Assembly: GCA_043745805.1 (NCBI GenBank)
Contig: JAYTSD010000031.1
Coordinates: 82,731 to 146,730, forward strand
Source: Fibrobacteria bacterium
Lineage (GTDB): Bacteria > Fibrobacterota > Fibrobacteria > UBA11236
Length of the DNA: 64,000 nt
Direction of reading: 5' to 3'
Below are positions 2,675-60,640 of this stretch, piece after piece. The notes below the pieces were generated by a model. The model saw nothing but the letters and a program-made list of their open reading frames with translations. It was not told the origin of the DNA and did not search any database. Within the stretch, counting starts at the first letter, position 1; every line of letters starts with the position of its first letter. A program made the translations under genes and the position numbers.

Positions 2675-3088
2675 ATGCAAATCACAGTAATACGCACGCG
2701 TTACACAGAAAAAAGCACAAGTGGGATTATGCTTGTGAATGATATTTATTTTGGCTTCACTCTTGAAGACAGGTTAAGAAACGGCCCAAAGATTCCGAAT
2801 GAAACTTGCATTGCGGCTGGTGAATACGATTTAATTGTCTCACATTCGACGCGATTCAACAGGGATTTGCCAGAAATTTTAAAAGTCGCAAACTTTACAG
2901 GTGTCCGCATTCATGGCGGTAATACCGACAAAGACACCGAAGGTTGCATTCTCGTGGCCGCAAATAGAATCAACGATGATTTGATTCAGGGAAGTAAATC
3001 CGAGGCGCTTGTGACACTGCTTAAGGATAAAAACGAGCCTCACAAAATCTGTATTGTAAACGCGTGGCTGAGTAACATGAAAGGTTAA
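2675..3088 (+). CDS. DUF5675-family protein (L,D-peptidase-like; candidate endolysin)
   Basis: TLED...ETCIAAGEY...F.GVRIHGGN...DTEGCILV signature with His/Cys. Confidence 0.8.
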   Translation: MQITVIRTRYTEKSTSGIMLVNDIYFGFTLEDRLRNGPKIPNETCIAAGEYDLIVSHSTRFNRDLPEILKVANFTGVRIHGGNTDKDTEGCILVAANRINDDLIQGSKSEALVTLLKDKNEPHKICIVNAWLSNMKG

Positions 3089-4972: not shown

Positions 4973-5131
4973 TCACTCTCCTTTCTTTCTTTCGTCGGAT
5001 TGTGCGTGCCCTAAAGCACCTGTTATAATTCCGGCACCAATTGGTATCAATGCACCAGAAGCGGGCGTAAAAGCCCCGCCAATGGCCACAGCGGAACCGA
5101 TAAGCATTGCGGCTATATGTTTCCAAGTCAT
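4973..5131 (-). CDS. Small membrane protein, holin candidate; not in ORF track
   Basis: Manual translation MTWKHIAAMLIGSAVAIGGAFTPASGALIPIGAGIITGALGHAQSDERKKGE: two hydrophobic segments and a charged tail, purine-rich RBS, last gene of the late operon. Confidence 0.6.
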   Translation of the reverse strand: MTWKHIAAMLIGSAVAIGGAFTPASGALIPIGAGIITGALGHAQSDERKKGE

Positions 5132-5170
5132 AATTTCCCTTTCTCCCGTTTTTATAGTGTACAGGTCACT

Positions 5171-5557: not shown

Positions 5558-5560
5558 TGG

Positions 5561-7863: not shown

Positions 7864-8149
7864 TTTTCAACCCATCCAACAGTGGCGCTTCAAGAGCCGC
7901 CGCTTTAATAGAATTTTGAAATACATCGATCTGCTTCACTTCGTCTTTGGCAAATGTTTTTAATGTCGCGTCTAAGTTGAACGCATTGGCTAAAAGGATT
8001 TTTTTGGCTAATTCTTGATCTTCGTCTAAGCTTTTTTTAATGTCGGAAATTTCCGACAGCGTCAGGATCATACCCTGTTTATTGCTAAACAGAACATGGT
8101 ATAAATCACCCTTCATCGGTTGAATATCACTAATAGCCAAGGAAAACAT
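7856..8149 (-). CDS. Phage hypothetical protein
   Basis: 97-aa ORF coupled to neighbours. Confidence 0.6.
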   Translation of the reverse strand: MFSLAISDIQPMKGDLYHVLFSNKQGMILTLSEISDIKKSLDEDQELAKKILLANAFNLDATLKTFAKDEVKQIDVFQNSIKAAALEAPLLDGLKNV

Positions 8150-8460
8150 TATTTTTTTTCCTTGATTAAATATTTTTTTACATCCTCAAATATTACCTTA
8201 TGGTAACCATCTATCTCTAAATGATAGCGCCAATGGCTGTGTATTAAATGCCAATCAAAACGCATTCCATCGAGTTCTTTTTTTGCCTTTGTTGGGCTAA
8301 TGTCCGTAATGTATAAGCATCCGGATTTTAATTTTTCTATCTCGAAAGTAGGTTTGTATTTTGTCCCACCTTCTTCGATTTTCCCGAAACCATAATCGAG
8401 AAAAACCTCTACAAAAGCACCGCTAGGCCGGCCATTTATCAACCTTCTTAGGATATTCAA
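8149..8460 (-). CDS. Phage hypothetical protein
   Basis: 103-aa ORF coupled to neighbours (TTG start). Confidence 0.55.
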   Translation of the reverse strand: MNILRRLINGRPSGAFVEVFLDYGFGKIEEGGTKYKPTFEIEKLKSGCLYITDISPTKAKKELDGMRFDWHLIHSHWRYHLEIDGYHKVIFEDVKKYLIKEKK

Positions 8461-8966
8461 TTTATACCACCAGGGTTATAAATCGTCCGCATTTGGAGGC
8501 TTCTAATAAAAGCTGTATCGCCTGCATTGGTTCCCGCTGCTGATTTAATAATCAGCCTCAAAGAGTCGCAATTCATGGCCCGCCCTTGATAGATTCCTGG
8601 CAAGGTGTCCCTTAAGGTAGTAGCAGATTTAGTAATCAAAAAATCAGTAGTCCTTTGATACTGACCCGTATCAGCCCATGCGTTTATTCGCTTGTCATAG
8701 CACAAAAACCTTACAGAGAATTGGCCGGAATCATCGCCATTACTACCATGGGTCCAAGACATAATAAACTCACTGTTACCCTGTCCAAAAGGGAAGGCTT
8801 TAGAGGTGTCAGCCGTACCGACGGATTTATAAGTGGGCACAGCGTAACCCGTAGTGTCAACATATATTGTAGCGCCTTTAAGCCCCCACTTAAGCTTGCC
8901 GTAACTATTCCTTATCTGTGCTTGGCCGCATACTGCCAGCGTTAAGATTAAAATTAAAAATTTCAT
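8457..8966 (-). CDS. Sec signal-peptide protein in the virion operon
   Basis: MKFLILILTLAVCGQA|Q signal peptide; beta-rich; 7 D-[S/T] dipeptides in 169 aa. Confidence 0.75.
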   Translation of the reverse strand: MKFLILILTLAVCGQAQIRNSYGKLKWGLKGATIYVDTTGYAVPTYKSVGTADTSKAFPFGQGNSEFIMSWTHGSNGDDSGQFSVRFLCYDKRINAWADTGQYQRTTDFLITKSATTLRDTLPGIYQGRAMNCDSLRLIIKSAAGTNAGDTAFIRSLQMRTIYNPGGIN

Positions 8967-9304
8967 TGTTTGTCTTCTCCTAATTGATGTTTTATGTCAG
9001 CCATTCCGAACATTCGATCTCGAATAAGCTTTTTTTTGTGCAATCTCTTGGCGACTTCTTCGGCACCATAAAACTCCACGATTACTAATTTTATAGTGTC
9101 TAGCTCTGCTTGGGTTTTTGTATGATAACCCAATACAACACTATCCACATGATGGGTGATTATAGAATCGTGCGCAGCCATGCTTTTTTCCATGGATTTT
9201 TTAGCAAGCCAGCCTGTTATATCTTGGCTAAAGGTGAGTAGACTTGCGCCACTTATACCTAAGGCAGAGAGAATCATAATTATGGCTTTTAAATCGAGTT
9301 TCAT
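8963..9304 (-). CDS. N-terminally anchored membrane protein (holin/antiholin/spanin-like?)
   Basis: Hydrophobic residues ~7-25; DSI, DSV and DTI motifs in the following domain. Confidence 0.6.
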   Translation of the reverse strand: MKLDLKAIIMILSALGISGASLLTFSQDITGWLAKKSMEKSMAAHDSIITHHVDSVVLGYHTKTQAELDTIKLVIVEFYGAEEVAKRLHKKKLIRDRMFGMADIKHQLGEDKQ

Positions 9305-11367
9305 TGTTCTTGCTCCTGATTTGCGTAACCACGCAAAAGTTTTTTTCTAAAATCTGGGACGCTGAGTTTATTAAGCAAAGTTGTGGATTGAGACGGGGAA
9401 TTTAATCCCATCGTAGGTGGTTTAAATGGCCCTTCTGCGGCGTTGCGGAGTGGATTACTTATATCGAATCCGATGGCCCTTGCCTTTTCTTTTATTGGTC
9501 CTAACACCGTATTATCGAGAATATTGTTTCCAATTTCCTTAACACCTTCTCGAATAGCATTTGATGCGCCTGTGCCGGATGTTGACATAACAGCATTTCC
9601 AAATTTATCACCAAGGTTCACGAGGTTTTTTAAATTATCTAGCTCCGTAGGTTCAAACAAAACTGAGGCTACTGTTTTTTTGTTTTCCATGGAATTTTTT
9701 AAGCGCTTGAAAGTAAAATCATCACCCTTTAACATTTCATTTAAAAATGTTCCCTTGAGTGTATTTAGTTGCTCCGGAGACAAATAATCTTTTAAAGCCG
9801 TAATTCTTTTTGTATCACCGTGATCAATAATGGATTTAAAAATCGCTTCATCACTTGTTCCCTCTTGGCCAATTTTTCCGAGCAAAGATTTATCGCCGAA
9901 TATTTTGTGCATCGCCTTATTACTCTCAACAAGCGAAGCGGCTTTTTCAATTCCGAAACTATTTTCAACAGTTCCGATCATCGCTTGCGAAATGTCACCA
10001 TATAATTTTCTAAAGCGAGAAATGTCCGGCGTAATATCTGCCAAAGTATTTTTAGACTTAAAGGCTACATCTCCAATATCCTGCAAAGCCTCATAGGATC
10101 CGGCGTAAGTTTGGCCCTTGCGCTTAAATACGTCAATTGCATTTAGTATTTGATTACCCTGCTCTTTTGCTGTTTTGGTTAAACCGTTTTCGGATTTTGC
10201 TTTCGCCCACGCTTCCAAATCCTGTAACTTAGGCGTTATCTTTTGCAATTGTTGCGGGTCCATCATTAAGTCGGGAACCTGTGCGATTATATCTTTATGC
10301 GTAGTATTGATAGCATCAAAAGCACGGTCCACGCCTTCGTTAAACCCTTCACGCAAAACGCTACCGGCGTCTTGGACGGTAACAGGTGCGCTACCACCAA
10401 TTTTTTCTATGTCCCTGTGAATCGCCTTGCGAACTTGATCCAATCCTTCAGCATGCTTGTCTAGTAGCTCCTGACCAGCTAACCCTTCGGCTTGTACTCT
10501 AGCAGTGCGCGTGGCCATATGGTTTTTGCCAAATTCAACGGCTTCAGGTAATAGTTTTGGATCGATTCCGTTTTCTAGTGCAGTTTTAACGGAATGCGTA
10601 AAGTCATCCGCTTGCTTTGGATTGAACGCGCTCGTGATTCCTTGTCTTGCACTTTCAAATGCGTCTCCAGTAGTTTTAATTAAAGATTTTGTGGCGTTTA
10701 TTGAACCTGTTGCAGCCTTTGTACCAGTAAGCAAATCAGCGCCACGAGCTAAACCCTCAACACCTTCACCAGCCATTTTTGCAATCGGCTTTGCAGTATT
10801 ACCGAGCATTTTTAATTCGGACATTCCAGGAATAGGCACAGCCAATTCACCTATAGCCCCAACTGTTCCGGATGCAGTAGGATCAAAAAATCCACCTTTT
10901 TTAAGCTGAATTCCTTTTCCAGTTTCATTATAAAGACTAGGTGCAACATCGCTTAATGCTGTTGATGGCACACCATATCCCTCAGCAATCTTTCCCGCTG
11001 TTGGTGATTTATCTGGATCGGCGCCAAAATTTTTTATTGCCGTTCCTAAAAATGTTCCAACATCTTTGTATTCATTTGGATCAGTAAATTTTGATAATCC
11101 CTCTGCTCGTCCACCTCTGTCTATTCTGTTTTGCTGTACTTGCCCAAGCCCTGCTCGAATAGGCGCAGTTGTTACCCTATCTAATTGGCGACCAACAAAA
11201 GCGAGTGGTGGGAGTACAATATTTGCTGCGGTAGAACCTATTTTATCTAAAAGGCTTAGATCATCTTGTGCAGCTGGATCGATAGCGGGCGAAGCGGAAT
11301 ATTTTTTCCATGGTCCATCATCGGTTACGGTACCGGTGGATGCATACTTTTCCCATGGCTTGGCCAT
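9301..11367 (-). CDS. Large DNA ejection / internal virion protein
   Basis: 688 aa, alpha-helical, N-terminal PWEKY/PWKKY repeats typical of podophage ejection proteins. Confidence 0.7.
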   Translation of the reverse strand: MAKPWEKYASTGTVTDDGPWKKYSASPAIDPAAQDDLSLLDKIGSTAANIVLPPLAFVGRQLDRVTTAPIRAGLGQVQQNRIDRGGRAEGLSKFTDPNEYKDVGTFLGTAIKNFGADPDKSPTAGKIAEGYGVPSTALSDVAPSLYNETGKGIQLKKGGFFDPTASGTVGAIGELAVPIPGMSELKMLGNTAKPIAKMAGEGVEGLARGADLLTGTKAATGSINATKSLIKTTGDAFESARQGITSAFNPKQADDFTHSVKTALENGIDPKLLPEAVEFGKNHMATRTARVQAEGLAGQELLDKHAEGLDQVRKAIHRDIEKIGGSAPVTVQDAGSVLREGFNEGVDRAFDAINTTHKDIIAQVPDLMMDPQQLQKITPKLQDLEAWAKAKSENGLTKTAKEQGNQILNAIDVFKRKGQTYAGSYEALQDIGDVAFKSKNTLADITPDISRFRKLYGDISQAMIGTVENSFGIEKAASLVESNKAMHKIFGDKSLLGKIGQEGTSDEAIFKSIIDHGDTKRITALKDYLSPEQLNTLKGTFLNEMLKGDDFTFKRLKNSMENKKTVASVLFEPTELDNLKNLVNLGDKFGNAVMSTSGTGASNAIREGVKEIGNNILDNTVLGPIKEKARAIGFDISNPLRNAAEGPFKPPTMGLNSPSQSTTLLNKLSVPDFRKKLLRGYANQEQEQ

Positions 11368-12635
11368 TATACTTTTTCCCAGTTTTTAGGGTCTTTTGGA
11401 TCGCCGCCTTTAAATTTGTAACCACCTTCTACGGTTCCAGCCGATGGCGCGGCGGGAGCTTTTTGACTTGATGAATCTGTTTTCGGAGTACGGCCATATA
11501 AAGAATCAATATCGGCGTTACCTCTATCGATAGATCCTTGCATGCTATTTATTTTTGCATTCACCTTATCAACAAATTTATCTAGGTTTCTTCCTATAAA
11601 CTCTCCGCTGCCACTCCAATTACCGACTTGATATTTTAATTCTGAGGCGAGTCTTTCAGCTTCATCATTAGACAAGGCATCGGGGCCTAGCGAGCTATTC
11701 ATGGCCTTTAACATTCCGAGGCCATAGGATAAAGCAGCATCTTTAGTCTTTGCGTTTTTAAACTGCTCTAAGTCGCTTGAAATTGTGTTTTTCAAAGTTT
11801 TTTGAAATCCAATTGTGCCGGCAATTTTTTTTACTTGCTCCTGAGCCTCCATGGGCAAGGCGTTAAATTCGGCGTTCTTATCAACTTTTCCGGCAATGTC
11901 CGTAAGCTCGTAAGTGCCTTTCTTTGTATTTGTTTTGTAAACAGATCCGTCACCTCCATTAAAAAACGAAAACTGCCCATTGTCCATTGCTTTAGCTTGA
12001 GCGTTTGACGCTCCCACATTTGCTTTGGCCTGTAGCGGTTTAAACGCGCTTGCGGCCGTTTCATTTTGTGACTGCGTGATTTTATCACCCTGCGTTTTCT
12101 CTGCTATGTTCGCTTCTACTCCCGATGTTCTCGCTTGTGCTTGTGTATGGGTAACATTAGCGTTACTGATTGGAGTTTCATTTTGGGTTTTGGTTAATCT
12201 GCCAGCATAATCCGCTTTAGCCATTTCCGGAGTATATAGCGGATCATCGTTCAAAAGTGACATGGTATGATAGTGTGCGTCGTTTAAACCTTGCGCTTGT
12301 GCGCCTGACGCCGAAATGCCGGTAGGCATTCCGCCTGCATCCATACCGAGGCTAGCTTTTCCCGTTTCGCCCATTGGCAATTGTGATGCGGGTTGAGAGT
12401 TCTTAAATGATTCTAAAAGCATTTGCTTTTTCAGATTCTTATCGAATGACAACTTAGATGTTTGATTCACTAAATTCTTGGCCGCGTTATCTTTATTTAC
12501 GCCCTCTGTGACCGCGGCAGATTGCAGTAAATCCGATTGGGTTTTACGATTATCTTGTATAGCCGTACCAATGTCACCTAGGCCCAATAAGCTGCGCTGC
12601 AAGGCTTCCGCCATGCTTGGTCTATATTGTATCAT
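11367..12635 (-). CDS. DNA ejection / internal virion protein
   Basis: A/Q-rich; C-terminal GTVEGGYKFKGGDPKDPKNWEKV motif typical of podophage ejection proteins. Confidence 0.7.
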   Translation of the reverse strand: MIQYRPSMAEALQRSLLGLGDIGTAIQDNRKTQSDLLQSAAVTEGVNKDNAAKNLVNQTSKLSFDKNLKKQMLLESFKNSQPASQLPMGETGKASLGMDAGGMPTGISASGAQAQGLNDAHYHTMSLLNDDPLYTPEMAKADYAGRLTKTQNETPISNANVTHTQAQARTSGVEANIAEKTQGDKITQSQNETAASAFKPLQAKANVGASNAQAKAMDNGQFSFFNGGDGSVYKTNTKKGTYELTDIAGKVDKNAEFNALPMEAQEQVKKIAGTIGFQKTLKNTISSDLEQFKNAKTKDAALSYGLGMLKAMNSSLGPDALSNDEAERLASELKYQVGNWSGSGEFIGRNLDKFVDKVNAKINSMQGSIDRGNADIDSLYGRTPKTDSSSQKAPAAPSAGTVEGGYKFKGGDPKDPKNWEKV

Positions 12636-13009
12636 CGTATTCCTGTTTTCAATCCAGGGTATGGATTAGCAAGGTTTGCCCCAAAAGAATTTCCAGCGGG
12701 GTTATTCGAAGAAAATGCAGAACCAAGAAAATTTTTAAAAATGTTATAGCCATTCTCGGCGGTTTGATCCGTTCTGCCTTTTCTTTTTAGGCTGTCATTA
12801 TTTAGTCTTTGCTCTTCAAGATTTAATTGATATGCTGGATCTTGTTCTTGAGCTTGCGCGTCAAGATAACCTCCAACACCACCCAGTAACCCGCCTAATA
12901 CCCCTCCGGCAGCCGTTCCATAAGGTCCAAATGCAGATCCGGCCTTTGCGCCACCGGTAGCGCCAGTGATACCCATAGATAATGATTCGGCCATTGTTCG
13001 CTTTTTCAT
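12632..13009 (-). CDS. Small glycine-zipper ejection protein
   Basis: GATGGAKAGSAFGPYGTAAGGVLGGLLGG membrane-active segment. Confidence 0.65.
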   Translation of the reverse strand: MKKRTMAESLSMGITGATGGAKAGSAFGPYGTAAGGVLGGLLGGVGGYLDAQAQEQDPAYQLNLEEQRLNNDSLKRKGRTDQTAENGYNIFKNFLGSAFSSNNPAGNSFGANLANPYPGLKTGIR

Positions 13010-15357
13010 CTTTTAGTCTCCAATGCTAACGCGGAATTAGCTCTATCATTTCCAACAAGATCGGTAAAGGCTTTTTTAGCTTCTTCTGGATCTAAACCAT
13101 TAACTACCATGTTGTAATAATTGGCATAATCCATTCCGACTTGAGTGGCGCTATAAATATATCGTACACCTTCTTCTAACAATTGGCCACCAACCTTACT
13201 ACGGTCATATAATCCCTTGTAAACTTTCTTTGGATCAAGACCATTATCCTCTGCGATCTTATTGAGGTGTTCCTCGGCATTTATCATCATGCCGCTCGCA
13301 TGTCTATTGTCTTTCTGAGCTACGATTTTATTTGGATCAAGTTTATCTGCAATATTTTTTATCTCGATACTATTGTCCTGAATAGTTTTCATTATATCAG
13401 GAGAGAGCGAGCTCTTCACCTGTCCAAGCGTGGTTTTGAAAGTTTTAACTTGAGTCGCATAGGTCTGTGTCCCGTCGTCTGTAATCTTGGCATTGATGTT
13501 ATTCTTCGCTGCTGCTATTTGCTCAGGAGTATATTGCTTGCCACTTGGATCTTTTGCAGTGGCAGCCCATGTTTCAAACGACGCGGGGTCTTTGAAGCTT
13601 GAGGCTTTCATGTTTAACGTGCCTTGTGCAACTTTATCAGCTGTCATCACCGGTGACCCGTCAGGATTCTTTAGGTTACCCAACCCTTTATAAAAATTCT
13701 CAGCTGCAAATTGAAGCATATCCGGATTATCGCCAGCCATTGCGGTAAGCGTTGCTGTGGTTTTTGCAAGGTTTTCGAATTCAGATGAGCCTTTTAACAA
13801 ATCAAATTTTGCCTGATCTAATCCAAGAGTAGAGGCGAATTCACTTGCGTCCTGAGCCAGCTTTTGATAAGCCAGTTGTACATCTTGATCCTTAAAATCA
13901 TATTTCTGCTGCAAGTCCGCGCTGAATTGCGTTGAATTTTGCGCGAGTTGCGCTTCGGCCAATGTTTTGGCTTGGGAAAGTTGTTTATCCTGTTGCTGTC
14001 CATCAAACCACTGCTGACTTGCTTGCATAGCGGTTTGTTGGTCATAACCCATACCAAGCAATTCTTTTTCGTAATCTTGCTTGGTAGTCGCCATAGCTTC
14101 CTCGTGAGAGTAACCCTTGTCAGTCATAAGCGAAGTAAAACTTTGCGCCATTTTTGTATTTAAGATTGTATTGGCTTGTTCTTTTTCGAGCGTGTCGAGA
14201 TTAAGTGTATGGTTTAAAGTCGCCATCGACGTATCGTGATCGTTTTTCATTTTCTCAAGCAATACATTTTGCTCATTTTGCGTGAGCTGTTGACCGGCTT
14301 CGAATTTTCTTTGAATGTCGTCTCGATTACCTTGCCAAATTCTTTGGGCCACGGCGTCATCGAGTCCAGCGGTTACGCGCCATTTTTCAAAATCTTGAGT
14401 CGAGTTGAACTGTTGAATTTGTGTCGCCATTTTTTTAGCGTCAATATCATACCCTTGATCCGCAATGTATTTTTGCAATTCGCGTGATAAATTATTTTGT
14501 ACTGAGGTCGCCGATATTTGTCTTTCGTTTTGCGTTGCTTGCCATGCTCTTTGGGCTTCGTCATTAGAAAAGCCTTTATCAGTGGCATATTTTTTAAACG
14601 ACAATTCGTCCTGAAATTGACTGCCACTTTGGGCCAGCTCTTTTTCGCGCAAACTTAGATCTTTCAGCGCAAGCTCTTTTGTTTGAGCTAGTGCAGTGGA
14701 ATTTTGCTCCCCTTGTTGACCGAGGCCCGCTAAGGTGGATAAGTTTTGGAAAGCATTTTGTTGTTTGGTTATATTTTGTTGCTCTTCTTGGCCTTGTAAT
14801 TGGCCTAAAAAGTTTTGTCTTGCGGGTATTAACTTCTGCGTTACATAGTCGCCTACATCGCCCCCAAGCTGTCCAGTGAAGGCATGTCCATTTAATGCCG
14901 ATGATTCTTTTGCTTGGCGTAAAGCCTCGCCCTCGCCTTTGTTGTACTCGTTTAAAGCGAACATCGATGACATAGATGGGTTTTGGTTACCCTGTAAATT
15001 TTGGCCTATTGCTTGGCTCGCTTGGCCTATCAATGGCTCTGCAAGCGGGTTTTCTTGCAATGCCTGACTAAATGTTTTAGGCTTTGCAGCCTGTGGATCT
15101 TGCGGGTTTTGTGGAGCGGGTCCATCGCCTGGATTAAATGCAGCTGAATTAAAACCGGCACTATCGCCACCTGGAATCTTAAATGAACTTTGTGACGAAG
15201 CTGGTGCCACTTGGTTAGGCGTTTGGCTATTGGCTATATCACTAGGTGCGCCGCCTGAATTTTGAACCGCGCCGCTTAATTTGGCGCCAAATGATTGGTT
15301 GCCAAAGTAACTTGGGCTTTTAGGATCGCGCCATTGATATGTTCCGGTTGTAGCCAT
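13006..15357 (-). CDS. Internal virion / ejection protein (Q-rich coiled coil)
   Basis: 783 aa, Q/A-rich heptad-like repeats, located between tail and ejection genes. Confidence 0.65.
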   Translation of the reverse strand: MATTGTYQWRDPKSPSYFGNQSFGAKLSGAVQNSGGAPSDIANSQTPNQVAPASSQSSFKIPGGDSAGFNSAAFNPGDGPAPQNPQDPQAAKPKTFSQALQENPLAEPLIGQASQAIGQNLQGNQNPSMSSMFALNEYNKGEGEALRQAKESSALNGHAFTGQLGGDVGDYVTQKLIPARQNFLGQLQGQEEQQNITKQQNAFQNLSTLAGLGQQGEQNSTALAQTKELALKDLSLREKELAQSGSQFQDELSFKKYATDKGFSNDEAQRAWQATQNERQISATSVQNNLSRELQKYIADQGYDIDAKKMATQIQQFNSTQDFEKWRVTAGLDDAVAQRIWQGNRDDIQRKFEAGQQLTQNEQNVLLEKMKNDHDTSMATLNHTLNLDTLEKEQANTILNTKMAQSFTSLMTDKGYSHEEAMATTKQDYEKELLGMGYDQQTAMQASQQWFDGQQQDKQLSQAKTLAEAQLAQNSTQFSADLQQKYDFKDQDVQLAYQKLAQDASEFASTLGLDQAKFDLLKGSSEFENLAKTTATLTAMAGDNPDMLQFAAENFYKGLGNLKNPDGSPVMTADKVAQGTLNMKASSFKDPASFETWAATAKDPSGKQYTPEQIAAAKNNINAKITDDGTQTYATQVKTFKTTLGQVKSSLSPDIMKTIQDNSIEIKNIADKLDPNKIVAQKDNRHASGMMINAEEHLNKIAEDNGLDPKKVYKGLYDRSKVGGQLLEEGVRYIYSATQVGMDYANYYNMVVNGLDPEEAKKAFTDLVGNDRANSALALETKR

Positions 15358-15638
15358 TATTCCATCCTCAGGGTAACAATTGCATTCTTGTCGCTAAATT
15401 GTAGAGTTACCCGTCGCAAATCTTTCACAGCAATTCCATTCGCATTTATTTTTATCCAACATTGCATATTTTTCCCTTCGGATGCCACAATAAAAACTTG
15501 CTTTGGTATGCGTGCAAGCTCGTGAGAAATGATTACATCGGTTCCGGCAGTTTCTTTTACGAATCGACGCAAGAGAGCGAAGCGCTTATCATCATCGAGA
15601 TAAACCTGATCAAGTTTTAATTCTCCGGTTGGGATCAC
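15357..15638 (-). CDS. Small tail-associated protein
   Basis: 93 aa with 'ISHELARIP' (H.LG..P-like fibre-associated motif). Confidence 0.55.
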   Translation of the reverse strand: MIPTGELKLDQVYLDDDKRFALLRRFVKETAGTDVIISHELARIPKQVFIVASEGKNMQCWIKINANGIAVKDLRRVTLQFSDKNAIVTLRME

Positions 15639-17167
15639 TGCATAAACTCCAATTCGAACCTAACCGGTGTGCCTTTAGTTCCGCTTGTTGTGAATCCAGT
15701 AGAACTATTGCTTTTATAAAAAGTTATAGTACTCGTGTTATATGAGGCCTTTATATCCGATGAAGGACCAATAGTTGCCGAATTGTCGGTTAGGCTTGGT
15801 ATTGAAAAATGTACGGTTCCAGGAGATAGTGTGGATGGAACTCCGGTATATGTAAATGTGTTAGCGTTGCTTGTTGCCGAAAGAATTGGAATATCTATGG
15901 TAACATGATTTCCAATCCTAAAAAATACGCTAACTGCCGTAGGAGCCGATGTGCATCCGGTAATAGTTGCCGTCCACGTCCCTTTATCAATGTATGTTTC
16001 ATACTGCCATGTGTTTCCAATACTCTTTACTGAGATATTGGAATTATTCGCATTTCCGATTAGTGTAGGTGTAGACCAATCAGTTCCAGATCCGGAAGTT
16101 ATTGAAATAGTATTCAAAGTAAAATCTGTTTTATGTATATCATAAACTCGTCCCACGCAGCTTGAGGCTAGCGGTAAAGTAATCGTAAAACTTCCGCTTG
16201 TAGCATCAGCGTTTATTGTATGGTGGGTAGCGTCTAGCGTTGTGTTTCCTGTAAGGGTGGTGACTACGTTGGCAACGGAAGTATTAAGTGTTACGCCGCT
16301 GGTTGCGGAAACGGTTAATTGTGTTGAGCCGTTAGTTTGAATTTGTAAATCCCGATAGGTTCCCGTACCTTGCTTATCAACAGTTAATTGCCCAGCCGTT
16401 CCGGTATGTTGTATAAAGCATCTTTCAGTATTTGCCACACTTGGATCGCCCACACCAAAAGAAACCAATGCACCCCCCGAAGCTGCAACATTTAAATTCT
16501 TTACATTCAAACCCCACGATACCACGTCCGTAGCGCCATTGACATTTGATCTCGTTGCCGCCGCCACTCCAAGTATAGGGGTAACAAATATAGGACTCGT
16601 AGCGCGAACATGGCTACCGCTTCCCGTTTCCGTATTAACTGATAAGTTACCTGATCCATCTGTTATGACCGTCCTAGAAGCGGTTAAAGGTGTAGCAATC
16701 GTACCCGTGAGCGCTGGACTCGAAATAGTTGGCGTTGCGATTGTCGGGCTAGTTGATTTTACATAACTACCAGATCCCGTTTGTGCAACAGTTGTTAAAG
16801 CTTTTCCAGCCGTAAGCTCCATAGTCTGCGAAGCTGTTCCGGAACTAAAAACAGGGGCAGTTGTGAAAGTATCCACACCCGCAAACTTTGCGGTTCCGGT
16901 AACCAAAGTGTTACCTGATATAGTAGGGTTTGATATAGTTGGTGTTGTAATCGATGGGCTTACCGACCGCGAAAGCACACCTGTTCCGGTGGCCGCGTTT
17001 ACCGTGTCGTTAATATTATTTACGCCCCATTTTAAAGCAGAGTCATTTTTGTCAACATACCGCACCTTTGGAATGGCCGCGGTATCGACGATATAGGGAA
17101 GGCTCACATTTGTGAGCGCAAAGGATTTTAAAGCAAAAAGTGATAGGAGTAAGAATATTTTTTTCAT
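15635..17167 (-). CDS. Putative tail fibre carrying an N-terminal Sec signal peptide
   Basis: MKKIFLLLSLFALKSFA| leader; repeated 'TG(S/T)G..V.(S/A)TSP....P.I' shaft motifs; 'ADATSGSFTITLP' and 'GTWTAT...RIGNHVTI' fibre domains. Confidence 0.75.
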   Translation of the reverse strand: MKKIFLLLSLFALKSFALTNVSLPYIVDTAAIPKVRYVDKNDSALKWGVNNINDTVNAATGTGVLSRSVSPSITTPTISNPTISGNTLVTGTAKFAGVDTFTTAPVFSSGTASQTMELTAGKALTTVAQTGSGSYVKSTSPTIATPTISSPALTGTIATPLTASRTVITDGSGNLSVNTETGSGSHVRATSPIFVTPILGVAAATRSNVNGATDVVSWGLNVKNLNVAASGGALVSFGVGDPSVANTERCFIQHTGTAGQLTVDKQGTGTYRDLQIQTNGSTQLTVSATSGVTLNTSVANVVTTLTGNTTLDATHHTINADATSGSFTITLPLASSCVGRVYDIHKTDFTLNTISITSGSGTDWSTPTLIGNANNSNISVKSIGNTWQYETYIDKGTWTATITGCTSAPTAVSVFFRIGNHVTIDIPILSATSNANTFTYTGVPSTLSPGTVHFSIPSLTDNSATIGPSSDIKASYNTSTITFYKSNSSTGFTTSGTKGTPVRFELEFMQ

Positions 17168-19146
17168 CGTTTCCCAAAGATTCTGGAAACCGTTTGCCGA
17201 AAATGCATAACGAGTCCAATAAATGTGAATGTTGCGCTTGCGTTATTTACTTGTAATTTGAATTGGAAAAATATTGCGTTTATTCCGCGCGGAATCGCTA
17301 TCGATCCGCCGAGTGAAGTGTTAGCAAACCAAGTTTTATCCCAAAGTTTATCCCATGATCGAGGCACGAATGTTGGTGAAATAGCGGCCAAACTTGTTCC
17401 GGTCGATACCGCTCCATAATCGCCATCGATGCGAGGATTTACTGATCCATCGGTGATAAATAAAAGTTCAATTATGGAAATGGTTTTAACGTACTCAGGA
17501 GAGTTTTGTAATATTGGACCGCTCCAAATATTCGTATCTATTGTAGTTTGAACTCCTCCCACATGGTCGTAAGCTCCCGCTCCCGCTTGCAGGATGCGGT
17601 AATTTTGATTGTCGAATACGATAACTTTTCTGTCGCGGGTATAAAGCATATAACCAAAGCCAACGCCAGTAAAAATCGTAAACTTGGCCGTGGAAGAGAC
17701 GTCGGGGTTATATGGCTGAAAGGTGGATAGGTCGAGAGTTAAAAGCGTATCACCACAAAGTTTTCCGGAATCCTGTCGAGTCGCGATATATAAAACTTGA
17801 TCGCAAACTGTTAGAACGATATTTGAATCGCCTTGATTTCCATTGTAACCTAGTTCGCCGCCGCCTAGAAAAATTGCATTCACATTCATGGAAATCATTA
17901 TCGGTGCACCAGTTGGCCCTAGGAATTCGAGGCCGCGAAGAGATACGAAGAAAGCCCATCGGCCCCATGTTGCGAACGCTTCTTGATTTCTCACACCCAC
18001 ATCGGGAGAGATTGGCTGTAATTGATTCTTAGGATCTGATTGAGGCAATAAATAGCAGGAATCAAGCTGGCTTAAAAAAGCATCCGTTCCGCTTTCCTGT
18101 CCTGATTTGTTACCTATGCCTTTAACACATGTTAAGTCACCTTTTCCGGGTAGTTTAATGCGGTAACTCGTAGTATTTGGATAATATTCGCATTCATATT
18201 TATTAGTGGCAATAATCGAAAACCATGCTGTTTTTGAAGCATCTGGATCCGTTGCATCAATGATAAAACCGAAAATAACCCGCTTTCCGGAAGAGGTAAC
18301 GAATTTTGCAGTAGGAGCGGCACCATTACGGCCGCTATCGTCAATTATTTGACCAGTTAAAGCCGCATCGCTAACATTTGACTGATATGTTACTGTTAAC
18401 CTTCCGGCTACTGTTGCCTCGAGGTAATAAGGAAAGCCCAATCCACTGAATGAGCGATAAACCTCATAGGCATTCACTCTCAAATCGGAAGAAGCAGTCC
18501 ATCCGAAATTAGTTTTTTGATTTGCTGGCGTTGCTGTAACAATTGTAGACCAATCACCACGAACAACGGTAACGCCTCCAACTTGAATACACGGGACGAT
18601 AACCCATTGCCATGTTCCGCTTTGCCCAGTGGCCGTAAAAGACGAAAAAGCAAAATTTGTTACCGGTGCTGGCGCTCCAAAAACTCTCCAAGCCGAATCA
18701 TCGGCTCTTTGTGGCAAATCAGCGCCATTGGTAGCGATGCATGCTCCCATAAAAGTCTCAAAACGAATAGTTTTATTGACTGTTAATCCCGTAACACGCG
18801 CCGTATCTATTCCAGTAGTCTTATCTAACTCTTGAATAGTGCCATTTGCATGGGCATGCAAGAGCCTAGCACTACCACCTGAGTCCACATATTCATGAGC
18901 GAGAGAAAATGCGCCCATGGCCGTGTAATCGGTAGTAAGGTTATTATTCGAGCTAAGCAAAAACCCAACAAACGCATTGCGGCGGTTTAGCGTTCCGCTT
19001 TGATAATCCATGTTATCAAGCTTTTGAGCGAAACCGTTTTTTATTTCCAAAAACGTATTCATGATGTCAATACCCAAGGGCATTTTATACCACGGCCCAC
19101 TACGTGGATCTGGAAAGCGCCTAAGTGAAGAGAGTGGCACAGGCAT
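17164..19146 (-). CDS. Tail nozzle / tubular protein B-like
   Basis: 660-aa beta-propeller-like composition, directly after the adaptor gene as in podophages. Confidence 0.65.
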   Translation of the reverse strand: MPVPLSSLRRFPDPRSGPWYKMPLGIDIMNTFLEIKNGFAQKLDNMDYQSGTLNRRNAFVGFLLSSNNNLTTDYTAMGAFSLAHEYVDSGGSARLLHAHANGTIQELDKTTGIDTARVTGLTVNKTIRFETFMGACIATNGADLPQRADDSAWRVFGAPAPVTNFAFSSFTATGQSGTWQWVIVPCIQVGGVTVVRGDWSTIVTATPANQKTNFGWTASSDLRVNAYEVYRSFSGLGFPYYLEATVAGRLTVTYQSNVSDAALTGQIIDDSGRNGAAPTAKFVTSSGKRVIFGFIIDATDPDASKTAWFSIIATNKYECEYYPNTTSYRIKLPGKGDLTCVKGIGNKSGQESGTDAFLSQLDSCYLLPQSDPKNQLQPISPDVGVRNQEAFATWGRWAFFVSLRGLEFLGPTGAPIMISMNVNAIFLGGGELGYNGNQGDSNIVLTVCDQVLYIATRQDSGKLCGDTLLTLDLSTFQPYNPDVSSTAKFTIFTGVGFGYMLYTRDRKVIVFDNQNYRILQAGAGAYDHVGGVQTTIDTNIWSGPILQNSPEYVKTISIIELLFITDGSVNPRIDGDYGAVSTGTSLAAISPTFVPRSWDKLWDKTWFANTSLGGSIAIPRGINAIFFQFKLQVNNASATFTFIGLVMHFRQTVSRIFGKR

Positions 19147-19814
19147 TATAAAGTTTCACCTGCAAACGATTGATAAAGTGGTTGACCAAACACATCTTGT
19201 GGCGTTCTATTGTCCGGCCTTGTTGATCCGCGTCTAACAGCCAGCCATAAAGCGGCTTTCCATTCTTCCGCTTGCGACTTATAGTTTGCTGCCATAGCCT
19301 GCAACTCAGGCGTATTGAATACGGCCAAGAATGATGCATAAGCCATGATGCAGCGCTTTAAATCGTCATCAGATGGCCATGCAGCTAAGTCCGCGATTAC
19401 AGTAACTTTTTTTCTATAAGTGAGGTAAAGCGTTGCCGTACCCGGATTAGTCGCGAACATTAGAACAGGGGTTCCGGTACTTCTGTTTATATAAACTTCA
19501 TAGCGCCTATTGTATGGCCCATCTTTAACAAGAGCATCAACGTCGAAAGTGTCGCTTGCATAGTATTTCGTGAGCCTTCTCTCAACTGGCTTACCTTCGA
19601 AATCGCTTGGAAGAGAATAAGGTCCAAGACTCCCATCAATAGCGGAAATTGTTGTTTGTCCTAAAACAAAATTCCAATCCTTATCCTTTACCAACCAACT
19701 AGCAGCGCCAACGACTTTACGCTCTAAATATCCGCCTGCTACGGTATCATAAGACTGAATCTCGCGAAGATCATCCGCAAGATCCGTCTTAAGCTGAGTG
19801 GTGTCGAGTGCCAT
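19146..19814 (-). CDS. Head-tail adaptor / tubular protein A-like
   Basis: 222 aa, 'DWNF...YSLPSDF' pattern, position after the capsid module. Confidence 0.65.
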   Translation of the reverse strand: MALDTTQLKTDLADDLREIQSYDTVAGGYLERKVVGAASWLVKDKDWNFVLGQTTISAIDGSLGPYSLPSDFEGKPVERRLTKYYASDTFDVDALVKDGPYNRRYEVYINRSTGTPVLMFATNPGTATLYLTYRKKVTVIADLAAWPSDDDLKRCIMAYASFLAVFNTPELQAMAANYKSQAEEWKAALWLAVRRGSTRPDNRTPQDVFGQPLYQSFAGETL

Positions 19815-20323
19815 TATGGTTTAGGTGGCTTTGTATTTGTAGATAGTTGTGCAACTTGCATACGTAATTCTTCGATCTCGTCATGCTGTTTGCGATTTTC
19901 TTCAATAAGCTCTTGATTCTTAAGCTCACTGGTTTTTGCTTCGGCATCGAGTTCACGATTTTCGTATAAACAAATACGGTTTTCCGGATGTTGCGACAAA
20001 AGCAAAAGGCGAATACATTCCTTTTCGTCTCTTGGGCAATAACCTTCCTTGGGAATCTCGTACATATCCGAAGGTGTTTCACGGTTAAATCCGGTCACAC
20101 TAAATTCGGAATAACCAGGCCAAAGAATGCCACGAATACCACCGGAATAAAACTGCTTACGGTTTGGAACGAATTTAATGAAGTCCGTCTTTGGATCGCG
20201 ACCAAATTCCTTTTTCCAGCCAGCAAGCTTCCTTTTGTTCTCCGGAGAAAAATCAAGCGTGTTACCGTAACTCAAAGTAGTACCGAGCGTAATTAATTCT
20301 GCATGTTTTTGTGGATTAAACAT
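19814..20323 (-). CDS. Phage hypothetical protein
   Basis: 169 aa with C-terminal coiled coil. Confidence 0.6.
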   Translation of the reverse strand: MFNPQKHAELITLGTTLSYGNTLDFSPENKRKLAGWKKEFGRDPKTDFIKFVPNRKQFYSGGIRGILWPGYSEFSVTGFNRETPSDMYEIPKEGYCPRDEKECIRLLLLSQHPENRICLYENRELDAEAKTSELKNQELIEENRKQHDEIEELRMQVAQLSTNTKPPKP

Positions 20324-20572
20324 TTAAGCCTCGACTTTTTCTTGTGGAAGAATTGCTTTGAGTCGTTCTATTTCCGCTTCGTGAAAAGCGATTTGTGAGG
20401 GGATTTCTGCGTGTTCATAATTCACGTCGGTGATGTGCATGAGAGGATTTTTTACATAACCTTCGAGTTCTTTCTCGTCGGATCTGTTGTCAGGCGTAAA
20501 GCCTTCCGGCTTAATGGTAAACTTGCCGATTATGGTAGTTTTGCCTTTGTGTGTTGGATAAAATGTTTTCAT
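20324..20572 (-). CDS. Phage hypothetical protein
   Basis: 82-aa ORF with AAGG RBS, after the terminator. Confidence 0.6.
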   Translation of the reverse strand: MKTFYPTHKGKTTIIGKFTIKPEGFTPDNRSDEKELEGYVKNPLMHITDVNYEHAEIPSQIAFHEAEIERLKAILPQEKVEA

Positions 20573-20583
20573 GTTACCTTTCT

Positions 20584-20609
20584 AAAAAACCCCTAGGTTA
20601 CCCTAGGGG
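20584..20609 (-). terminator. Intrinsic terminator closing the capsid transcript
   Basis: Minus strand reads cccctagg-GTAA-cctagggg followed by TTTTTT. Confidence 0.85.
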
Positions 20610-20632
20610 AGAGTGTTTTTGTTACTAATCGA

Positions 20633-21220
20633 TTACCGAGCAAATCCCTTGCGCGTATAGGTTATCCTACACCTTGGGATATTCTTCGCAATTGCCCCAT
20701 TGTTAACAAGTCGCCATCGAATAAACCTATGGTCGATTGTTTTCAGTGGAGGACGTAGCACAGTGGTTACCACTAGGTTAACATCCGAGGCTTTTGTGAT
20801 TGTGACATTATTAACCGAATCCCATGCAGTACTACCAGCACGCAATGGATTTAACCCATCGGACGCAACTAGCGATTGCTGAGTGGTAAGGCTCACTATA
20901 ACCGAATCGGTTACGGCTGCCGAATCGGTTACGTCATAGCATGACAAAACAACATTCCCGATTTTCGTGGTGTCAACAAGTGGTTTACCCACTGAATCGC
21001 CAACGAGCAAAGGAATCTTGAACATATCAAATGCCTGAGTGTAAATAGTGTCACCGATTGCCATTTGTGCATCGAGCACAAAGTAAGCGAACCCGCCGGT
21101 ACCATATTCGTAAGAAGACGTTACCGTAACAGGTGCGTTTTGTGGCGTGGTGCCATTAAAATAAGTGGCACCCATAACCAACGAAGATAGAAGAAGGATA
21201 AATCCAAGTAATTTTTTCAT
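20633..21220 (-). CDS. Sec signal-peptide protein immediately after the major capsid gene (decoration-protein position)
   Basis: MKKLLGFILLLSSLVMG|A leader; GAGG RBS; jelly-roll-like 'RFIRWRL' end; 6 D-[S/T]-[AIVT] motifs. Confidence 0.78.
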   Translation of the reverse strand: MKKLLGFILLLSSLVMGATYFNGTTPQNAPVTVTSSYEYGTGGFAYFVLDAQMAIGDTIYTQAFDMFKIPLLVGDSVGKPLVDTTKIGNVVLSCYDVTDSAAVTDSVIVSLTTQQSLVASDGLNPLRAGSTAWDSVNNVTITKASDVNLVVTTVLRPPLKTIDHRFIRWRLVNNGAIAKNIPRCRITYTRKGFAR

Positions 21221-21230
21221 TATCGACCTC

Positions 21231-22478
21231 TTACTTTCTGATATTGGTTAACAAGGTGACTGCTTTAGGATCAGAGCATAAAAGCCCTTCTACCACGTAC
21301 ATGGCCGCTCTATCTACCCAATCGGTTCCCAATATTTTCATGTCGGTATCTTCTTGCAAATCCATGTTTTGTAAGTACATGCGAGTTAACAAGTCGGGTT
21401 GAAAACCAATAGCTTGGCCGCGACGAGCTTGCTTGTTCATAAATTCCGAAGGAATTAAATGAACCGTACCGCTCGGTACTTCCAAGTCAATGATTTTTTG
21501 ACGATAGGCTTCTTTTTGCTCTGTGATGCGCGTTTGCTTTTGAGCATAAGAGGTAAACGTGGTCATAACGTCATTGCCGCAAAGCATATAAACGTCCATT
21601 CCCGCGCCGCCTTGGCGACACGCAGGAACAAGGCCACGGGAGAAATCATCCCACGCTAAAGTGCCGTCTTGTGAGTTGTTATTATAGACGGAACCCGCCC
21701 ACCATTCCAAACCACCGGCAATAAGAGCACGAGTAGATCCACTGCCAATAGTTGCCTTTTGGCCTGCAATCATCCCGCCTTCACGCATACGATTTAAATC
21801 CACGTTCTTACGAGCCATTTCTTTTTCGTAATCGGAATTTGGTTTTTCGCCGCCTGCAAACAATTGCACGTTCTTTTGTAATGGTCCTTGGGCCATCCAT
21901 TGGATCATGAATTGCAAGTTATTGATGCGGTTAATTGGTTCGCGGTTTGTGCCATTCGCAGCCGAAGGACCGTCACCGTTTGCATTACCAATTTTTTCGA
22001 AATACTTAATGGATGAATCAGAAGTCATCGCCACGGTTCCACCGGCACTTAAATAAGTACACAGGGCGGTTACCTGTGTTTGCGAGTCAATGGAAACAAC
22101 TCTGAATTGAGTGGTTTGATCCACTTTGTTCAGCATGTCATTAGCTTGAATACCAGAGGTATCATCCAATAACAAAACAGAATTCGATCCTTGTGTCGTG
22201 TTCACGTTCGCTGTTAAGCGAAATTCAGTTGGCGCAACTTCGAAATCGTATAGTTCCGGTGTAAGGGTCCAAGATTTTTCGGACTTAATGCGAGCTTTCG
22301 CATCCGTTATTTTCCCGTCGTTCATGACGGCTTTTCCACCTAAGAGAGTTAGAAATGGGAACATATCATAACTGATTAAGTTCCCCTCCAAGACTTGGCG
22401 CACTTGACGTGCGTCCGATCTTCCGGCCAGCTTTCTGGCATTTTCCAACGTCCCTGCGGTCGCTGTAACATCAGACAT
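21231..22478 (-). CDS. Major capsid protein (SU10/DUF5309-like HK97 fold)
   Basis: 415 aa after portal and scaffold; 'N.LQFMI', 'AGGL', 'GTVHLIPSEFM' and 'YVVEGL' features. Confidence 0.8.
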   Translation of the reverse strand: MSDVTATAGTLENARKLAGRSDARQVRQVLEGNLISYDMFPFLTLLGGKAVMNDGKITDAKARIKSEKSWTLTPELYDFEVAPTEFRLTANVNTTQGSNSVLLLDDTSGIQANDMLNKVDQTTQFRVVSIDSQTQVTALCTYLSAGGTVAMTSDSSIKYFEKIGNANGDGPSAANGTNREPINRINNLQFMIQWMAQGPLQKNVQLFAGGEKPNSDYEKEMARKNVDLNRMREGGMIAGQKATIGSGSTRALIAGGLEWWAGSVYNNNSQDGTLAWDDFSRGLVPACRQGGAGMDVYMLCGNDVMTTFTSYAQKQTRITEQKEAYRQKIIDLEVPSGTVHLIPSEFMNKQARRGQAIGFQPDLLTRMYLQNMDLQEDTDMKILGTDWVDRAAMYVVEGLLCSDPKAVTLLTNIRK

Positions 22479-22491
22479 AAATAATTACTCC

Positions 22492-23553: not shown

Positions 23554-23562
23554 GCAATTCTC

Positions 23563-27907: not shown

Positions 27908-28200
27908 AGGTCAGCATGGCTTTCTACCAATGACTCTGGCGTCGCTTCTGATATTGGGGCGATACGAGCCTCAGGATTGTTGTTAAGGAATTTCATAGCG
28001 GTGAAAAACTGCCTGTGCAAGTTGTCCACTACGTCATGAATTTGTTTTGTGTTGGTTATTTTACGAGTTGATACAGCGGCTATCTTTAGCCCTCGAAAAT
28101 GAAACTCATAAGTCTCGTCTTCCAAGTTCTTGATAACCGTGATGTTACGAATTACTTGCGGTTCTTCTGGTCTAAATACTTGGTCAATGCCTATTTGCAT
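27904..28200 (-). CDS. Phage hypothetical protein
   Basis: 98-aa ORF overlapping neighbours. Confidence 0.55.
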   Translation of the reverse strand: MQIGIDQVFRPEEPQVIRNITVIKNLEDETYEFHFRGLKIAAVSTRKITNTKQIHDVVDNLHRQFFTAMKFLNNNPEARIAPISEATPESLVESHADL

Positions 28201-28658
28201 TTGACCTCAACGCGGCGATTTAGATTATCATCATTGGAAGCTGGCTTTTCTTCTCCATAACTGATTACAAATAATTCCGCGTTGACATTGGCGTTAATGA
28301 GATAGTTTTGTACTGCCTGAGCTCTCGCAAGCCCAAGAGCGTAATTGTAAACCTCGTCACCTACTTGGTCGGCATGACCTTCGATAATGCAATGGTTTTT
28401 TGCGTTATCCGCGATTAGGCGAAGTGTACTTTGTTCGCTTGCCTTAATTATCGATTGGTTAAAATCAAAATAAACAGTGGGTAACGTGAATTGTTTATCG
28501 GCACCCTCCGTGCTTTCGGTTTCGTTAAATGTGTGGCCGCCCTCGTCCTGCTTGTCGGTTTTAATTTGCGATTGATGATCAGGAACCAAAGGGACGACCA
28601 AGTTTTTAAGTGCACAGCTGCACATGAGTAACGCTAGTGTTACATAGACTAATTTCAT
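28191..28658 (-). CDS. OmpA/Pal-like peptidoglycan-binding lipoprotein
   Basis: Lipoprotein leader (LLMCSC); VYFDFNQS, IEGHAD..G...YN..LGLARA..V, SYGEEKP and NRRVE motifs. Confidence 0.9.
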   Translation of the reverse strand: MKLVYVTLALLMCSCALKNLVVPLVPDHQSQIKTDKQDEGGHTFNETESTEGADKQFTLPTVYFDFNQSIIKASEQSTLRLIADNAKNHCIIEGHADQVGDEVYNYALGLARAQAVQNYLINANVNAELFVISYGEEKPASNDDNLNRRVEVKCK

Positions 28659-37200: not shown

Positions 37201-37410
37201 ATGGATACCATGACTGAAGACATTGTATTGACCAAAGATCAGTTTATGCAGCGCTATAATGTGCTAGAAGATTGGATACAAAAAAACACCCAAGCGAAGC
37301 GCATACCTGGTCAATTCAAGGTCGGCAAATCATGGCGCTATCCATTGGCCGAGATTCAAAAAAATATTCTTAAAACGGGACAATTGCTTTTGAAGAAAGA
37401 GATTCACTAG
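37201..37410 (+). CDS. xis: Excisionase-like winged-HTH protein
   Basis: VLTKDQFMQRYNV...RIPGQFKVGKSWRY; adjacent to the integrase. Confidence 0.75.
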   Translation: MDTMTEDIVLTKDQFMQRYNVLEDWIQKNTQAKRIPGQFKVGKSWRYPLAEIQKNILKTGQLLLKKEIH

Positions 37411-37463
37411 TGTATCTTTTTCTCGGCCAGCCAAAGCCACCCATAACGAGAGGTAACTTTCTT

Positions 37464-38607: not shown

Positions 38608-38652
38608 CTCTTAATCAGCGGGTCGAAGGTTCAATCCCTTCAGTACCCACCA
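38608..38652 (+). other. att site: 3' half of tRNA-Lys(CTT), from anticodon loop to CCA
   Basis: CTCTTAA-TCAGC-GGGTC-GAAGG-TTCAATC-CCTTC-AGTACCC-A-CCA; no D-arm or 5' acceptor strand (GGGTACT) upstream. Confidence 0.88.
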
Positions 38653-60635: not shown

Positions 60636-60640
60636 GGGAC

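Follow-up and report, generated by a model that had tools for sequence, protein, structure and literature searches.

Tailed-phage particles are held to be built wholly in the cytoplasm, and all decoration proteins known to us lack a signal peptide and bind their capsids there. The subject of this study is the late operon of a prophage of approximately 39.5 kb, integrated at a tRNA gene and carrying an SU10-type capsid and portal, in a 64,000-nt stretch of contig JAYTSD010000031.1 (this whole stretch is called the window, and all coordinates refer to it). Four of the operon's products, namely a 195-amino-acid (aa) jelly-roll protein, a 510-aa fibre-like protein and two small proteins of 169 and 113 aa, appear to be routed through the Sec pathway. 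The operon thereby points to a possible maturation of some tailed-phage components beyond the cytoplasm. The 195-aa protein can be compared with the Bbp16 cement protein of Bordetella phage BPP-1 (PF21190): both are small jelly rolls, the former by prediction, with a gene that adjoins the capsid gene and is (here, putatively) co-expressed with it. The 195-aa protein differs in having a signal peptide and in giving no PF21190 match.

Exported or membrane proteins are also encoded among the morphogenesis genes of temperate phages, as with Lom and Bor of lambda, Cor of phi80 and N15, and SieA of P22. These are sporadic, compositionally distinct morons expressed in lysogens. The window genes likewise specify exported or membrane proteins among morphogenesis genes, but they are positionally conserved, have a neighbour-like composition, overlap their neighbours and include one with fibre architecture.

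The general protein O-glycosylation system of Bacteroidota acts at the motif D-(S/T)-(A/I/L/V/M/T), according to the relevant passages of a review (PMC12871550), which also note a similar motif enrichment in the sister phylum Fibrobacterota and describe the oligosaccharyltransferase of the Bacteroidota system as still undiscovered. A term search of the review for 'phage' gave no occurrence. Like the Bacteroidota substrates, the late-operon proteins are predicted Sec substrates carrying a three-residue motif that is enriched in the exported proteome of the host; unlike them, they are products of a phage late operon in a host outside Bacteroidota and are known here from sequence alone.

Leader-bearing structural proteins have been recorded in Cellulophaga phage phi18:3 (Pachyviridae), where gp085-gp087 (NC_021794, 32891-38583) are annotated as structural/tail proteins 'based on experimental MS/MS proteomics analysis' (MS/MS, tandem mass spectrometry). 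All three are large proteins and start with leaders, ending S|Q or A|Q. Both phages are short-tailed, infect hosts of the FCB (Fibrobacterota-Chlorobiota-Bacteroidota) group and encode leader-bearing proteins, structural in phi18:3 and putatively so here; they differ in that no sequence relationship joins the two sets, the phi18:3 proteins carry the motif at or below chance, and gp085-gp087 are not encoded beside the capsid gene. For prophages of Porphyromonas gingivalis, a section of PMC10367356 mentions proteins with leaders whose function is unknown and which may change the host. In a full-text literature search no paper turned up that reports tailed-phage components exported by Sec or glycosylated by the host.

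Results

The late genes form one tight minus-strand operon, from 29439 down to approximately 4970. It opens with a helix-turn-helix gene resembling a small terminase, an OmpA-family lipoprotein-like gene, and the genes for the large terminase subunit (TerL), SU10-type portal, scaffold and SU10-type major capsid. The capsid gene is followed by about 20 genes that matched no family; among their products are Q-rich and glycine-zipper proteins similar in character to the internal or ejection proteins of podoviruses. In the initial annotation three products of this operon were held to begin with signal peptides and a fourth with an N-terminal anchor. All four open reading frames (ORFs) were present as described, on the minus strand, and the leader test used here, a simple rule based on hydrophobicity and charge, agreed. 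The leaders of the 195-, 169- and 510-aa proteins consist of M-K-K/F, 12-15 hydrophobic residues and a small-x-small site, and all three were flagged; the 113-aa protein has a single hydrophobic segment, at its N-terminus. The only other late-operon protein flagged was the OmpA-like lipoprotein, a fifth exported protein that the annotation had not listed. The G+C content of the exported genes (0.39-0.45) is like that of their neighbours, and most of them overlap neighbouring genes by 4 nt.

Sequons were defined as D-[ST]-[AILVMT], and expected numbers were obtained from residue shuffles of each protein. The 195-aa protein contains 6 sequons (1.07 expected, p<0.0005), the 169-aa protein 4 (0.68 expected, p=0.004) and the 113-aa protein 3 (0.45 expected, p=0.008), an excess of 4-7 times chance in three of the four proteins. 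The 510-aa protein contains 3 against 2.71 expected and is not enriched overall; its three sequons are located within 27 residues (positions 28, 42 and 54), a clustering reached in 1.5% of shuffles. The earlier description of all four as motif-rich thus stands for the 195-, 169- and 113-aa proteins and, for the fibre, is reduced to a cluster in the N-terminal module. The counts by eye on which it was based were exact (D-[ST] at 6 of 12 Asp in the 195-aa protein and 7 of 10 in the 169-aa protein, 3 in the 113-aa protein, and 4 in the fibre, all within the first ~100 residues), as was the statement that full sequons number none in the major capsid protein and one in TerL. When exported and other late proteins were compared, as had been proposed, the five exported proteins together held 16 sequons against 5.29 expected (3.0-fold, Poisson 1.3e-4) and the other 23 held 18 against 23.3 (0.77-fold).

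The 195-aa gene is separated from the major capsid gene by 10 nt. In the 60-nt gap directly after it sits the strongest minus-strand terminator-like hairpin in the 19 kb scanned (Table 1), and this putative terminator closes a unit of scaffold, capsid and exported-protein genes. A word-based homology search with the 195-aa protein gave no matches. A leader-bearing homologue of 194 aa was located directly behind the capsid gene of G004, a prophage fragment from another genus of the same family (capsid 42% identical), and a full HMMER search with this pair returned 29 proteins, 23 of them at E<=1e-10. The family was aligned in 27 rows (26 near-full-length matches and the window protein; three fragments of 104-118 aa were left out), all of which pass the leader rule. 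Cysteines C94 and C184 occur together in 25 rows, and the other 2 have neither, as expected for a disulfide. The rows hold 112 sequons against 33.5 expected, with control motifs at 0.8-1.2 of expectation. The sequon at D105 is present in every row, and its third residue is only ever A, I, L, T or V.

The AlphaFold2 (AF2) model of the 195-aa protein was a confident eight-stranded jelly roll (predicted local distance difference test, pLDDT, 86.9). PirA gave the best structure match (Z 9.8), ahead of XepA, from the PBSX lytic cassette (Z 8.8), and of YomS (Z 8.1). The BPP-1 cement protein (PDB 3j4u chain H) matched with Z 7.5 and a root-mean-square deviation of 3.5 over 113 residues, below several unrelated jelly rolls, and Foldseek returned many carbohydrate-binding modules and lectins. 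The structure search suggested in the annotation thus returned only generic jelly rolls, and the match to the cement protein falls in this generic range. In the Atlas the 195-aa and 169-aa proteins had the same closest neighbours, viral clusters without a name; of the clusters with Pfam annotation, the one closest to them (score 0.81-0.83) had Bbp16 in 21% of its members, which is taken as a lead only. Screening of the 27 family members against Pfam at E<=10 gave no match, PF21190 included. Within the host phylum the capsid gene and the 195-aa family profile were found in only 2 of 296 genomes, those of the host (G000) and of G004. Searches of the viral- and genome-contig collections for similar loci, made with the capsid protein, the alignment of the two capsids, A2 and A4, gave no match.

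The start and the stop of the fibre gene each overlap a neighbouring gene by 4 nt. A search with the 510-aa protein gave 34 matches of 342-890 aa that share parts of it, 15 of them leader-bearing by the rule. Alignment of the first 140 residues of the 15 leader-type rows showed a common N-module. It consists of the leader, a brief stretch of conservation centred on a proline, and a sequon that is present in 14 of the 15 rows with V, M, T, A, L or I as third residue. Most rows have a second D-[ST]-[ILM] site about 60 residues further on, and an extra cysteine pair occurs jointly in four. The closest relatives, P0040 and P0043, keep all three window sites and differ in their C-terminal parts. 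By these alignments, the architecture is a conserved N-terminus with a variable C-terminus, typical of particle-attached receptor-binding proteins. Matches that lack a leader have the repeat and distal parts in common with it, which means that ordinary fibres use these modules too; the ratio of observed to expected sequons is 1.72 in 14 leader-bearing relatives and 0.53 in 18 leaderless ones. The N-module occurs once in the host genome, and the fibre was not found in G004. Against cultured phages (tblastn) the fibre gave one match of 47 residues, in a feature annotated 'T7 tail fiber protein'.

For the 169-aa protein three full-length homologues (54-57% identity), one miscalled partial row and one metagenome fragment were found. 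The four full-length rows of this family all have a leader ending A|Q. By the simple rule, leaders are thus present in 27/27 rows of the 195-aa family, 4/4 full-length rows of the 169-aa family and 15/34 fibre matches, a point that the annotation had marked for checking. The cysteine within the leader of the window's 169-aa protein is absent from all 4 homologues, so the 169-aa protein is not a lipoprotein; the two cysteines of the mature part are conserved. The family holds 19 sequons against 3.6 expected. Four sequon columns are conserved, in one of which the third residue varies among A, M, T and V. No relation between the 169-aa and 195-aa proteins was detected beyond the leader, and the AF2 model of the former (pLDDT 52.8) was too poor for a structure search. 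The 113-aa protein gave only a weak PHROG match, of unknown function.

A two-component spanin (Rz/Rz1-like) was considered for the 113/169-aa pair and rejected, there being no conserved lipobox cysteine. That assignment also fails on position, as neither the lysin candidate (2675-3088, +) nor the holin-like ORF (4973-5131) adjoins the pair. As a separate observation, the metagenome fragment (L003) encodes, behind its 169-aa homologue, a gene (460-756) that resembles, by eye, the C-terminal part of window ORF 5171-5557, the last late gene, which has a weak 'tail fiber' PHROG match. This likeness would connect the 169-aa family with the distal fibre region, though with the genes differently ordered.

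The same arrangement was found in a very distant relative, the IMG/VR record L007 (42 kb, high G+C, with an integrase), whose capsid protein is 27% identical. Its genes occur in the order portal, scaffold, capsid, a 181-aa leader-bearing protein and a strong terminator hairpin, followed by a 671-aa gene that a leader-bearing fibre gene overlaps. Next come four genes of ejection-protein type, an anchored protein of 134 aa and leader-bearing proteins of 171 and 850 aa. The 181-aa protein aligned with the 195-aa family profile in hhalign with 81.7% probability (E 1e-5). A leader-bearing protein is thus encoded behind the capsid gene in all three syntenic phages (window, G004 and L007), with a terminator hairpin after it in two (window and L007); none was found behind the equivalent gene in G004. 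A 660- or 671-aa gene precedes a leader-bearing fibre in both the window and L007. The 134-aa positional analogue of the 113-aa protein has 3 sequons against 0.37 expected, and no sequence relation was detectable between the 134- and 171-aa proteins of L007 and the 113- and 169-aa proteins of the window. The exported proteins of L007 hold 20 sequons against 7.27 expected (Poisson 7e-5) and its remaining proteins 18 against 12.3.

The initial annotation had assumed a Bacteroidota host, an assumption that has to be given up because the collection classifies the host outside Bacteroidota, in a phylum of 296 species, 208 of them in its class (another family of the class has a genus of 101 species). 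The host genome gave 42 matches to the C-terminal sorting domain of the type IX secretion system and none to SusD, a pattern that would fit Fibrobacterota. A total of 3109 host ORFs was called crudely and split by the simple leader rule. Observed over expected D-[ST]-[AILVMT] was 2.26 in 551 leader-bearing proteins and 1.26 in 1786 cytoplasmic ones, and eight control motifs (reversed, E or N for D, other third residues, etc.) ranged from 0.77 to 1.07 in the leader-bearing set. Among host proteins of 100-260 aa, none of 742 cytoplasmic ones reached 3 sequons per 100 residues; the value is ~3.6 for the 195- and 113-aa phage proteins and ~2.9 for the 169-aa protein. The exported, lipoprotein-like host protein at 47259-49358 does share the bias ascribed to it earlier (20 sequons, 3.77 expected). 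Gln showed no positional excess after the host leaders, and the Bacteroidetes 'Q-rule' is accordingly not used in the reasoning here.

Discussion

That the exported late-operon proteins are real Sec substrates is well supported, because their leaders are conserved and their cysteine pairs covary. Their O-glycosylation by the host is probable, judging from sequence statistics and conservation, since the motif excess is specific, is conserved in position, tracks the presence of a leader and mirrors the host secretome. The motif excess offers independent genomic support for motif-directed O-glycosylation extending beyond Bacteroidota, and the phage proteins supply small, well-defined candidate substrates for testing it, such as the 195-aa jelly roll with its invariant site.

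We tentatively read the jelly-roll protein as a capsid decoration and the fibre as a side fibre, both being additions to the particle that would undergo maturation in the periplasm and be attached at lysis. The late operon would encode a fixed set of Sec-routed proteins, comprising the jelly-roll protein, the modular fibre, the 169-aa beta protein and the signal-anchored 113-aa protein, with the jelly-roll gene co-transcribed with the capsid gene. In the periplasm disulfides would be formed and D-[ST]-[AILVMT] sites O-glycosylated by the general system of the host, and the two add-ons might then attach to particles already filled with DNA, after the inner membrane has been breached by the holin. 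The reason for preferring this reading is that even very distant relatives have the genes at the same places within their capsid and tail modules. A possible particle role is favoured by the capsid-linked jelly-roll gene in its putatively terminator-bounded unit, by the receptor-binding architecture predicted for the fibre and by the phi18:3 precedent. The full picture of a tailed phage finished outside the cytoplasm, in which an exported, disulfide-bonded and O-glycosylated decoration and side fibre dock after the lysis opening to give a host-type glycan coat, is possible though rather doubtful. It would, with the same reserve, place a glycan-coated virion in a phylum, probably Fibrobacterota, where motif-directed O-glycosylation is still to be demonstrated.

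Several points weigh against this. Association with the virion is for every one of these proteins deduced from the genes, and the same operon carries the OmpA-like lipoprotein, certainly not a virion part, so a place in the operon is no proof of belonging to the virion. Integrases are encoded by both this phage and L007, and a function in lysogens is therefore possible. The real fibres of the phage could be the leaderless fibre-like proteins at 5561-6757 and 6757-7863, and the 510-aa fibre lacks an overall sequon excess. The predicted jelly-roll fold is a generic match, with the best Z for PirA and that for the BPP-1 cement protein only 7.5. The leader test is crude. No locus or enzyme of the host glycosylation machinery was identified, D-[ST]-hydrophobic could in principle be kept for structural reasons, and gp085-gp087 of phi18:3 have 1 sequon each against ~3 expected.

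It is somewhat unlikely that the proteins are instead late-expressed exported helpers, never present on the particle, that act in the periplasm or on release. Possible roles would be envelope breakdown and escape, masking or destruction of receptors on debris and sister cells, which would keep progeny from being trapped, or binding of envelope glycans. The evidence for export and glycosylation serves such helpers equally well, the OmpA-like lipoprotein shows that the operon carries envelope-directed non-virion genes, the phage has its leaderless fibre candidates, and the Foldseek matches to carbohydrate-binding modules and lectins would suit the task. Two of the better fold matches, XepA (Z 8.8) and YomS (Z 8.1), are prophage lytic-cassette proteins in the account that PMC6834076 gives of them. 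Against helpers stands the enclosure of the capsid gene and the next gene in one terminator-bounded unit in two distant relatives, as does a fibre with conserved N-terminus and variable C-terminus, as in particle-attached receptor-binding proteins. The endolysin candidate is moreover encoded on the opposite strand, far from the exported genes, and the 169-aa protein is not a lipoprotein, so the 113/169-aa pair is not a classic spanin pair.

Prophage-expressed envelope proteins that serve the lysogen, through superinfection exclusion or lysogenic conversion in the manner of Lom and Bor of lambda, Cor or SieA of P22, are an improbable explanation, although both phages are temperate and the hairpin behind the 195-aa gene also fits a moron-type unit. 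The 113-aa anchor and 169-aa protein are encoded directly behind ejection-protein-like genes, and in P22 sieA is likewise located just behind the ejection-protein genes. The genes nevertheless have neighbour-like G+C content and 4-nt overlaps, and a sigma-70-type scan, which does not cover the host promoter type, found 27 promoter-like sites against 37 expected, thus no excess. Unlike sporadic morons they keep position and export signal down to 27% capsid identity, and the modularity of the fibre is hard to explain for an exclusion protein. Alteration of the host by leader-bearing prophage proteins is at least considered for P. gingivalis in the section of PMC10367356 that deals with them.

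Chance or miscalled starts, with hydrophobic N-termini unused as signal peptides and a motif excess due to composition, are a very improbable cause: the leaders were called by a simple rule alone and, of the three p-values for single proteins, two fail Bonferroni correction for the 28 proteins tested, but dozens of relatives show protein-level conservation of the leaders, the shuffles control for composition, the control motifs are flat, the result was repeated in two families and in L007, and the cysteine pairs covary.

If the decoration and side fibre are indeed particle add-ons, virion assembly would have a branch in which maturation takes place in the periplasm and the host makes a glycan coat. 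Coats of this kind would bear on how stable phages are, on their interactions with mucus and the immune system and on their host range. The alternative meaning would be an undescribed class of phage envelope effectors.

Other features of the prophage and host

Table 1. Coordinates of the features discussed, with strand and basis of assignment
Feature	Position	Strand	Basis
DUF5675 protein, endolysin candidate	2675..3088	+	E 1.2e-25
52-aa ORF with two hydrophobic segments at the late-operon end, holin candidate	4973..5131	-	size and hydrophobicity only
169-aa predicted Sec-exported all-beta protein, 4 sequons, two conserved cysteines	8457..8966	-	homologue alignment
113-aa protein, N-terminal signal anchor, 3 sequons in predicted periplasmic part	8963..9304	-	hydrophobicity, counts
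510-aa fibre-like protein: signal peptide, N-module with sequons 28, 42 and 54, fibre repeats, variable C-terminal domain	15635..17167	-	homologue alignment
660-aa protein directly upstream of the fibre gene	17164..19146	-	no match to any family or solved structure
Terminator-like hairpin, 8-bp stem, 6 GC pairs, T6 run	20590..20609	-	hairpin scan
195-aa predicted Sec-exported jelly-roll protein, 6 sequons, conserved cysteine pair C94/C184	20633..21220	-	HMMER, alignment, AF2
Major capsid protein, SU10_MCP family, 0 sequons	21231..22478	-	family match, E 1.8e-13
155-aa OmpA-family lipoprotein-like protein, exported, 0 sequons	28191..28658	-	family match and leader test
Tyrosine integrase, right end of prophage	37410..38594	+	family match
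45-bp direct repeat, right copy, like a tRNA 3' end	38608..38652	+	repeat comparison
Host 699-aa exported lipoprotein-like protein, 20 sequons against 3.77 expected (host comparison)	47259..49358	-	count against expectation

The extent of the prophage was set from the two copies of the 45-bp repeat, the left one 906 nt before the window start, and the adjoining tyrosine integrase. ARAGORN found no tRNA inside the window, so the intact tRNA should be just to its left. The capsid and 195-aa proteins had no match among cultured phages (tblastn) and TerL matched only at <60% identity; by these comparisons no cultured phage is close to the prophage. A PDB sequence search with the 660-aa protein, the fibre and the 195-aa family profile gave no matches. 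DUF5675 is grouped with C82-like peptidase lysins in the pertinent part of bioRxiv 10.64898/2026.04.11.717860.

The OmpA-family (peptidoglycan-binding) gene is located between the small-terminase-like gene and TerL and overlaps both, an unusual spot for an envelope protein. In the plus-strand operon of the phage a 2-oxoglutarate- and Fe(II)-dependent (2OG-Fe(II)) oxygenase gene (3962-4780, +) is found beside NinG; its product may act in nucleic-acid or protein modification. A 215-aa phage protein (36276-36923, +) consists in part of tandem repeats of ~10 residues, of the LGNLSDGRLA type, and has a weak MgtE_N match.

The host genome comprises 3.95 Mb in 50 contigs, and its DNA is present in four sediment-metagenome DNA runs of one study; no RNA run was listed among those containing prophage DNA. 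Comparison of the contigs of the four runs over window positions 5000-24000 gave no joints or ends bearing on the question. In run X1 this whole stretch lies within a single 35.5-kb contig, and in run X3 of the same study there is a diverged variant of the phage, with many contigs 95-99% alike over it.

Beyond the prophage, a host cluster of type II secretion or type IV pilus type (pseudopilins, PilN/PilO, secretin and ATPase; 39317-49358, -) is headed by the 699-aa lipoprotein-like protein. Two giant RHS-repeat/DUF6443 proteins (2221 aa and >1122 aa) are encoded at 53970-64000 (+), downstream of an OmpH-like gene.

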